Below are positions 13,943-16,304 of a stretch of 32,000 bases of DNA, one piece after another. The notes beneath the pieces were generated by a model. It was not told the origin of the DNA. It did no database searches and saw only the letters and a program-made list of their open reading frames with translations. The translations under genes were made by a program, and so were the position numbers. The stretch is from an uncultured Candidatus Saccharibacteria bacterium (GTDB lineage Bacteria > Patescibacteriota > UBA1384 > XYA2-FULL-43-10 > 1-14-0-10-43-13): NCBI GenBank assembly GCA_964543385.1, contig CAZIYE010000001.1:630001-662000 (forward strand), written 5' to 3'. Every line of letters begins with the position of its first letter. Position 1 is the stretch's first letter.

Positions 13943-14035
13943 GTTCAAGTCCGTTGATCCATACAAAAAATAAAATAACTAGTCCTAGACTAGTTATTTC
14001 TATGGATCTGTGTAGTTGCAGAAGTTCGAGCTATT
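13943..14035 (+). repeat. Hairpin module copy 1: tRNA 3'-end-like fragment, 12-bp-stem hairpin and conserved right flank
   Basis: GTTCAAGTCC plus 13 nt (13943-13963). Hairpin AAATAACTAGTC-cta-GACTAGTTATTT (13973-13999). The right flank ends GAAGTTCGAGCTATT (to 14035). It is clearly homologous (not scored), with small indels, to copy 2 over about 90 nt. Confidence 0.8.
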
Positions 14036-15049: not shown

Positions 15050-15139
15050 GTTCGAGTCCAAAGTGGAGGAAACAAAAAATAACTAGTCCTAGACTAGTTA
15101 TTTTCATGGCTCTGCACAGTGAACGAAGTTCGAGCTATT
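15050..15139 (+). repeat. Hairpin module copy 2
   Basis: GTTCGAGTCC plus 13 nt (15050-15070). Hairpin AAAATAACTAGTC-cta-GACTAGTTATTTT (15076-15104). Right flank ...GAAGTTCGAGCTATT (to 15139) overlaps the last codons of the Nudix gene. Confidence 0.8.
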
Positions 15140-15545: not shown

Positions 15546-15592
15546 TATCTCCTTTACATTAATAAATTAATCTTATCAATTTAGGGCGACCA

Positions 15593-15650
15593 GTTCGAGT
15601 CCAGTCTGATTTATACAAAAAATAACTAGTCTAGGACTAATTATTTTTAT
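15593..15650 (-). repeat. Hairpin module copy 3, in inverted orientation, serving as terminator of tRNA-Asn
   Basis: Hairpin at about 15617-15648 (AAAAATAACTAGTC-tag-GACTAATTATTTTT) with one C/A mismatch. Its loop is the reverse complement of the loop in copies 1 and 2. A plus-strand fragment, GTTCGAGTCC plus 13 nt, lies at 15593-15613. Confidence 0.75.
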
Positions 15651-15725
15651 TGGCTCCCTGAGCTGGACTCGAACCAGCAACATCTTCGTTAACAGCGAAG
15701 CGCTCTGCCATTGAGCTATCAGGGA
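15651..15725 (-). tRNA. tRNA-Asn: tRNA-Asn (anticodon GTT) with encoded CCA
   Basis: Hand-folded cloverleaf: acceptor TCCCTGA/TCAGGGA, D stem GCTC/GAGC, anticodon stem CTTCG/CGAAG with loop CTGTTAA, T stem GCTGG/CCAGC with loop TTCGAGT, discriminator G, then CCA. 75 nt. Confidence 0.93.
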
Positions 15726-15733
15726 ATAAATTG

Positions 15734-15982
15734 TTATTTTTCAAACAATGTTTTGATAAAATTTCTGCCAGCGTGGGATTTTAAATATTTTTCTCTTCCC
15801 AACGCTTCTTTTCTATTATCAAATCTTTCAGTATAAAAAATTTTCCATGGCTTGTATTTTCTGCTGAAATGATTCGATCCAGAATTGTGTTCAAGTAATC
15901 TTTTTTCAAGGTTATCAGTTACTCCAGTATAAGTCTTTGGCGATTTTTCACTGATTAGAATATAGATATAACTATCTGCCAT
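15734..15982 (-). CDS. GIY-YIG nuclease superfamily protein (UPF0213/YhbQ-like small URI-domain protein)
   Basis: YIYIL...YTGVTDNLEKRLLEHN...PWKIFY...REKYLK matches the GIY-YIG core (GIY-x10-YIG-like, R, E, N). Its stop lies 8 nt upstream of the tRNA-Asn 5' end. Confidence 0.88.
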   Translation of the reverse strand: MADSYIYILISEKSPKTYTGVTDNLEKRLLEHNSGSNHFSRKYKPWKIFYTERFDNRKEALGREKYLKSHAGRNFIKTLFEK

Positions 15983-15985
15983 TGC

Positions 15986-16067
15986 CCGTCCTTGCTGATT
16001 AATCAGCCAAGGCCGAGGTCTCGGCTCGCTTCGCGAGTCGGAAGCTATCAGGGAAAATGTATTTTTC
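15986..16067 (-). mobile_element. GC-rich three-hairpin leader of the GIY-YIG gene plus a duplicated tRNA-Asn 5' end, a putative insertion junction
   Basis: 16043-16054 equals tRNA nt 1-12 (TCCCTGATAGCT), and 16055-16067 resembles the sequence upstream of the real tRNA. Minus-strand hairpins are CTCGC-gaa-GCGAG, CCGAG-ac-CTCGG, and CCTTGGCTGAT-ta-ATCAGCAAGG. The 3' arm of the last hairpin contains the AAGGA RBS. Confidence 0.6.
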
Positions 16068-16304
16068 TAATAGCAATTCTAGCAAAAAAAATGACTTCTG
16101 TAAATAAACCTATCTACTAGGATGAATAAGCTAGGAGTATGGCAGATATAAACATGTCATACCAGTTGACTCTTTTGCGGTCAGAGAGATGGTTTGCCTC
16201 AAAAGCATTCATCTTACTCCTTTCTTCGGTAATGACTTTGGAGACCTATTTTACCTCTTGGTCAATAGATGTCAAGAAAAATATATAGATATTACATCTC
16301 TCTA

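Follow-up and report, generated by a model that had tools for sequence, protein, structure and literature searches.

The sole tRNA-Asn gene of an ultra-small bacterium is interrupted within its D-arm by a cassette that carries a GC-rich hairpin block and an open reading frame (ORF) for a GIY-YIG nuclease, and the 5′ part of the tRNA is present twice, leaving one intact tRNA downstream. We judge it fairly likely that this locus belongs, as a compact example, to a family of very small, selfish, homing-type cassettes residing in tRNA genes of Patescibacteria-like bacteria, each consisting of a conserved hairpin block and the gene of a single-domain GIY-YIG nuclease. At the present locus, the split tRNA copy is what now follows the native tRNA promoter; the start codon of the ORF lies in duplicated tRNA sequence, and duplicated leader sequence furnishes the stop codon.

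The host genome (0.9 Mb, 98.7% complete, 38% G+C) contains 43 tRNA genes, among which ARAGORN identified tRNA-Asn(GTT) as the only tRNA gene for Asn. On the minus strand of the window, which is the whole 32,000-nucleotide stretch of DNA that was analysed, the order is promoter, 21-nt leader, segment A, hairpin block X, segment B, ORF, 17-nt spacer, tRNA-Asn(GTT), and finally an AT-rich palindrome with a T run:

16076–16104, minus strand: native tRNA-Asn promoter, with −35 TTTACA, a 17-nt spacer and extended −10 TGcTAGAAT (promoter scan).
16055–16075, minus strand: original tRNA leader (left flank), resembling the spacer before the intact tRNA (local alignment).
16043–16054, minus strand: segment A, the left copy of tRNA-Asn nt 1–12 (exact 12-mer).
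15985–16042, minus strand: hairpin block X, 58 nt and GC-rich (covariation and DNA fold).
16025–16037, minus strand: hairpin 1 of X.
16013–16024, minus strand: hairpin 2 of X.
15990–16012, minus strand: hairpin 3 of X.
15989–15993, minus strand: AAGGA, Shine-Dalgarno-like, part of the 3′ arm of hairpin 3; the ATG follows after 6 nt (sequence and fold).
15975–15984, minus strand: segment B, the left copy of tRNA-Asn nt 13–22, which holds the ATG of the ORF (read from the sequence).
15734–15982, minus strand: ORF of the single-domain GIY-YIG nuclease, 82 aa (Pfam PF01541).
15726–15742, minus strand: leader-like spacer, which gives the ORF its last two codons and its stop codon (sequence and alignment).
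15651–15725, minus strand: intact tRNA-Asn(GTT) (ARAGORN; Rfam tRNA, 70.2 bits).
15617–15648, minus strand: AT-rich palindrome with a T run after it, a candidate terminator for the joint transcript of ORF and tRNA (further copies occur elsewhere in the genome).

An initial annotation, made from the letters alone, had described a duplication of tRNA nt 1–12 at this locus. Its coordinates all proved correct, as did the distance of 8 nt between the stop codon of the ORF and the tRNA, and the exact 12-mer corresponding to nt 1–12 has just two occurrences in the 0.9-Mb genome, at 15714–15725 and 16043–16054. It had, however, missed nt 13–22, which recur directly after X, so that the upstream copy comprises tRNA nt 1–22 split by X. 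The extension of the duplication into the upstream flank, which had also been claimed, is real at the present locus: the left leader and the right spacer align with a local score of 13, a value attained by 0.05% of random 21-mers and by 0.2% of AT-rich ones from the genome (p ~5e-4 to 2e-3). This feature is nevertheless exceptional: among 40 comparable loci, 38 have a duplication that starts with tRNA nt 1, and leader sequence is duplicated only in the remaining two, the present locus and L011. The spacer before the intact tRNA is homologous to the spacers of L003 and L156.

The junctions, between nt 12 and 13 and between nt 22 and 23, are common to the 11 Asn-lineage loci that were examined besides G037, including L002, L003, L005, L077, L080, L087, L156, L157 and L158; the G037 member differs, with its ORF following tRNA nt 1–7 and X placed in a second tRNA copy. 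Two simple accounts of the junctions were rejected. A straight cut across the D-stem fits the Asn members and fails for the Gln, Asp, Ser and Leu members, and a duplication running from the transcription start, which would have hinted at an RNA intermediate, is contradicted by L005, where it reaches the −10 box, and by the prevailing start at nt 1.

The promoter scan placed the native promoter at 16104–16076, with 10 of 12 matches and the TG. The arrangement TTTACA-N17-TGCTAGAAT precedes empty tRNA-Asn genes in relatives, such as L030, by about 21 nt, and TTTACA-N17-TGnTAnAAT stands at an equal distance before empty tRNA-Asn genes in relatives, that of G018 being nearly identical letter by letter. 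Between the native promoter and the tRNA, the scan found no other promoter-like site on the minus strand. With no second promoter before the tRNA, ORF and tRNA-Asn probably form a single transcript, in which the ORF would be expressed as an oversized pre-tRNA leader and from which RNase P would free the tRNA. Just upstream of the tRNA promoter, we also noted a 31-codon ORF (16117–16212, minus strand) with a strong Shine-Dalgarno sequence and a hydrophobic tail, and a promoter-like site at 16275–16248.

The 82-aa product of the cassette matched Pfam PF01541 over residues 4–73 with 63.8 bits (cut-off 22.6, E = 1.9e-17), and no other Pfam domain scored above its curated cut-off. The catalytic residues of the superfamily (the Tyr of each motif, Arg, His/Asn and Glu) are conserved, with Y7, Y18, G20, R28, H32, N33 and E64 invariant in a five-sequence alignment. 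A search of the PDB yielded UPF0213 proteins only, the closest solved structures by sequence being EF2693 (PDB 1YWL, E = 2e-6) and BH0048 (PDB 1ZG2, E = 6e-5). Comparison with the ORF of L156 gave a dN/dS of 0.04 at a dS of 0.96, demonstrating strong purifying selection on the protein. A 69%-identical protein carries the NCBI label Patescibacteria; a scan of reference genomes with the single protein returned two distant matches only, and exact-protein look-ups returned the same strain only, with the cassette.

Homologous cassettes occupy many tRNAs in tRNA-specific lineages, with filled and empty sites among relatives. Homologues of the protein were present in 40 of 41 related genomes, at 2–16 per genome. 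When samples were picked on protein similarity and nothing else, a same-strand tRNA gene directly adjoined 31 of 43 ORFs from relatives and 54 of 73 from metagenomes (72–74% of the 116), where by rough estimate less than 1% would be expected by chance. Most of these ORFs are on the 5′ side of the tRNA and some are on the 3′ side. Upstream of most 5′-side ORFs lies a split 5′ copy, A-X-B, made from the resident tRNA; it was seen at Asn, Gln, Leu, Asp, Ser, Arg, Gly and Met tRNAs, and the insertion point of X ranges across the family from nt 6 to nt 27 or later. Many family ORFs are without a stop codon of their own, reading into the tRNA and ending at its conserved TAG (nt 8–10). Hairpin types follow protein clades, and protein clades track tRNA identity, with 36 label changes on the tree compared to 61–67 in the five shuffles inspected. 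The present protein falls within a clade of nine tRNA-Asn-linked sequences (SH-aLRT 92); L156, L157 and L158 are further Asn-lineage relatives that the tree does not include.

Comparing the tRNA-Asn loci of relatives, as the initial annotation had proposed, revealed 14 empty sites and 10 filled ones, and the filled sites hold at least four separate GIY-YIG lineages at different insertion points. The closest copy, L156, has a 91% identical protein and 88.6% identical DNA over 413 nt, the similarity running from nt 1 of the left copy to 8 nt past the tRNA. For the three neighbour genes of L156, no homologue was found in the host genome, and one of them has orthologues beside a tRNA-Asn that is empty in G018 and filled by a cassette of a different lineage in G010, so that an empty site and two filled ones share a gene neighbourhood. 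We considered the unrelated flanks of L156 as proof of recent transfer; this argument is weakened by a dS of ~1, at which unalignable flanks are expected anyway, and transfer need not be recent. In the same-genus genome G001, we found no syntenic empty site: synteny breaks just left of an ArsR gene, and no tRNA-Asn was found.

In L003, L077, L079 and L080, the left remnant carries another natural acceptor-stem variant than the working tRNA, with all differences confined to nt 4–7. Chimeric remnants of this kind are expected if the left arm comes from the recipient and the rest from the donor, and they are consistent with copying by cutting and repair of an empty allele. The proposal that the insertion regenerates an intact tRNA, and that its target-site signature supports mobility, is supported by the position of the promoter, the empty sites and the recurrence at many tRNAs in protein lineages specific to their targets. 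Further GIY-YIG copies, for which a search of the host genome had likewise been envisaged, did not appear in it, the ORF and X each being single-copy; with one ORF-bearing copy and no X repeats, nothing indicates activity in this genome.

Block X, which had been described as a GC-rich stretch of about 60 nt, was confirmed as 58 nt that are unique in the genome, and its three predicted hairpins passed a covariation test. Across eight homologous leaders, 91% of cells were paired, compared to 29–44% when partners were slid, and 7 of the 23 pairs, which belong to the three hairpins and to a closing stem joining the two ends of the block, showed compensatory changes. Folded as DNA, X gave z = −3.5 relative to shuffles. 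In relatives, X opens with a CGTC box 2 nt past the tRNA-arm junction; in the present copy the box reads CGAC (A at 16038). X is under strong purifying selection and far more conserved than synonymous sites: relative to L156 it differs at 3 of 58 positions, two of which are a compensatory pair in hairpin 3 and the third the T-to-A change of the present copy in the CGTC box, whereas the synonymous-site p-distance is 0.54. Segments A (0 of 12) and B (0 of 10) show no differences and the tRNA shows 6 in 75, putting X and the non-functional arms on a level with the tRNA in conservation at the present locus. Such near-invariance argues that X and the arms are not a decaying scar. The CGTC box is otherwise invariant, and the present copy may be less active than its relatives.

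This conservation bears on the possibility that the gene is a fixed relic or has been domesticated, having entered tRNA-Asn once, long ago, and being now inherited vertically, with the split copy as a mere scar and the nuclease in the service of the host, for example in Ssn-like processing of single-stranded DNA during transformation or repair. Several observations would suit such a history, namely the single copy in the host genome, the strong purifying selection on the protein over a synonymous divergence of ~1, the same junctions throughout one protein clade and the mutated CGTC box. A scar should decay, yet A, X and B are nearly invariant; moreover, the cassettes are patchy among close relatives, with several independent lineages at the same tRNA, relatives hold 2–16 paralogues at different tRNAs, and some left remnants are chimeric. 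We therefore regard a relic as unlikely. Coincidence, in the form of a chance repeat beside an ordinary gene, has a practically negligible probability: apart from the AT-rich flanks nothing speaks for it, and it is refuted by the recurring architecture, which is found in dozens of loci, along with the confinement of the 12-mer to two sites and a flank similarity of p ~1e-3.

X could also act chiefly at the RNA level, as a leader that conceals the ribosome-binding site and thereby represses synthesis of the nuclease, a role suggested in the initial annotation for the last hairpin. The placement of AAGGA in the 3′ arm of hairpin 3 held up, the motif is paired in the minimum-energy fold of the leader, and hairpin 3 shows compensatory changes. 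Masking as the main role of X did not hold up, and we consider it improbable, as the closest relatives have not kept the Shine-Dalgarno-like sequence, which L002, L003 and L005 lack or show in weak form, the 103-nt RNA leader folded as a whole is unremarkable (z = −1.4), and the sequence of X is conserved, not only its pairing, most of all in hairpins 1 and 2, far from the ribosome-binding site. A search of the leader with the covariance models of Rfam 15, up to E = 1, matched the tRNA itself and no family for the leader. X also occurs in tRNA copies with no ORF behind it, in the second tRNA-Asn copy of G037 and likewise in L157, and ORF-less A-X-B scars lie directly upstream of tRNA-Asn in G013 and, in the host genome but outside the window, upstream of tRNA-Thr(GGT) (G000:C1 ~212826–212945, minus strand). 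Together with the poorly conserved Shine-Dalgarno-like motif, its occurrence without an ORF points to a role of X at the DNA level. A different function for the conserved tRNA arms beside X would be that of a guide, as RNA or single-stranded DNA, which pairs with the tRNA gene and directs the nuclease. The protein has no DNA-binding domain, and the arms always match the resident tRNA and are conserved even though they lie outside any working tRNA, as a guide would have it; however, long perfect matches are more simply due to duplication, there is no sign of the arms acting in trans, and one arm is missing in L004, L008 and L013, making a guide very improbable in our view.

Returning to the homing-type cassette as the preferred reading, spread between homologous tRNA genes would occur by homology-dependent copying akin to the gene conversion of homing, the homology being supplied by the tRNA sequence that flanks the cassette on both sides. 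Because a GIY-YIG hydrolase cannot join strands, such copying must rely on host repair. Whether the encoded nuclease sets it off, by cutting at or beside the hairpin or the D-arm, probably in single-stranded DNA, is a question on which we lean slightly towards no. We think that X may be the nuclease's own site, at which cutting would promote copying into homologous tRNA genes, and the putative driver of its spread would be an Ssn-like nuclease of the cassette's own. Against homing stands the intact tRNA, which still holds the presumed target sequence. As a more specific proposal, which we offer tentatively and hold to be doubtful, X and the 82-aa nuclease would make up a self-contained homing system acting on single-stranded tRNA-gene DNA, such as the displaced strand of heavily transcribed tRNA genes. 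The enzyme would cut at the hairpin or D-arm, the split tRNA copy would serve as landing homology and repair template, and X alone could be copied into further tRNA copies. Were this proposal true, few known autonomous mobile elements would be smaller, and Ssn-type enzymes would have a natural partner in such a system.

Of the bacterial nucleases that await characterisation, single-domain GIY-YIG proteins are some of the most common, and to our knowledge a hairpin-specific activity on single-stranded DNA was shown for some of them only in 2025. Seg proteins, another group, are free-standing GIY-YIG homing endonucleases of T-even phages, of which SegB is encoded within a tRNA gene cluster; their genes are thought to spread by gene conversion after cutting an empty allele, and the proteins have about 200 aa or more, with DNA-binding domains. 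The present ORF resembles them in being a free-standing GIY-YIG gene by tRNA genes with a patchy distribution among relatives, located outside any intron or intein and present or absent at the same site. It differs in that the 82-aa catalytic domain lacks a separate DNA-binding domain of the Seg type, and Seg genes are not known to have a hairpin block, a split tRNA duplicate or tRNA-derived start and stop codons.

The Ssn family (SsnA of Neisseria meningitidis, CDD cd10448) consists of site-specific single-strand DNA nucleases, single-domain GIY-YIG proteins that cut just 5′ of an oriented hairpin motif flanking their own gene, in a hairpin-gene-hairpin layout that the authors likened to an insertion sequence; tRNA goes unmentioned in that paper (PMC11893778). 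Common to both are the single GIY-YIG domain in a protein of ~80–95 aa (82 aa here, below 150 aa) and the position of the gene beside a GC-rich hairpin that is conserved and oriented and has its CGTC-type box at the 5′ side. The two also differ: X sits within a duplicated tRNA fragment, and the Ssn motif is a genome-wide repeat, whereas X is single-copy in the genome. The published SRM pattern matched the X of relative L005, gave no match to the X of the present copy or of L156, and had one match across the host genome compared to about one expected.

UPF0213 proteins (EF2693, BH0048) are of equal size and have the same single domain, and their PDB entries report no tRNA-gene link, unlike the present cassette. 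In islands and prophages of the integrase type, the tRNA likewise stays functional, with the element supplying or duplicating the displaced part; such elements span kilobases, work with tyrosine or serine recombinases and are directed to the 3′ part of the tRNA, whereas the present cassette has ~330 nt and one ORF, lies on the 5′ side, duplicates the 5′ end and has no recombinase. IS200/IS605 and REP/RAYT elements are similar in being very small and in having DNA-hairpin ends recognised on single-stranded DNA, and employ HUH transposases, which act through covalent intermediates. A full-text literature search turned up no account of tRNA-nested GIY-YIG cassettes, which look like an undescribed kind of very small selfish DNA. 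A ~330-nt cassette that nests in tRNA genes and borrows their promoter along with start and stop codons, while the tRNA is kept alive, would be a new, minimal route by which selfish DNA could maintain itself in the smallest bacterial genomes. Assembly breaks and odd tRNA annotations in these genomes would be accounted for by such cassettes, which would also give natural enzyme-plus-hairpin pairs of differing specificities.

Several further arrangements were seen among the relatives. Extended cassette forms occur in L004 (G037:C18; oriented 1487–1967) and L157:1501–2079, in which another tRNA-Asn allele comes after the ORF and an intact tRNA-Asn; this second allele is without its first 5–6 nt and carries X between nt 12 and 13, which suggests that X may be copyable into a tRNA alone, or that the cassette may bring a replacement tRNA. 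A tRNA-Asn with an insertion of ~200 nt in the anticodon loop, missed by ARAGORN, is present at L087:495–700, L157:1870–2079, G015:C4:77958–78249 and G022:C15:4693–4984; stretches of the insertion are conserved between L087 and L157, the two that were read, and it may be a group I intron. At L002:1380–1500, the main block is preceded by a second, partial hairpin block, nested in the left copy after tRNA nt 4. The scar in G013 (L035, G013:C4) is an A-hairpin-B arrangement without an ORF, 70 nt upstream of an otherwise 'empty' tRNA-Asn, and the scar at tRNA-Thr(GGT) comprises tRNA nt 1–10 with one mismatch, ~56 nt of GC-rich hairpin block, nt 11–32 copied exactly and a 23-nt spacer, after which the intact tRNA follows. 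Near-canonical NTS/SRM hairpins of the Neisseria type (TGTCAT-CCCGCG-loop-CGCGGG-ATCC) were found in ultra-small genomes at L020:554 (G017) and L027:1391 (G021), one of them ~85 nt upstream of an empty tRNA-Asn.

In the window itself, the AT-rich palindrome is present in three copies (13966–14035, 15070–15139 and 15613–15682), each adjoining a piece that resembles a tRNA 3′ end and terminates in CCA, the third piece being the true 3′ end of tRNA-Asn. The copies bracket a NUDIX gene and a 292-aa ORF as single-gene units, and the same palindrome also follows a tRNA-Ala gene elsewhere in the host genome. About 60 nt beyond tRNA-Asn, across the palindrome, the plus strand carries an inverted copy of the T-arm of tRNA-Asn (~15588–15612, 13 of 15 nt).
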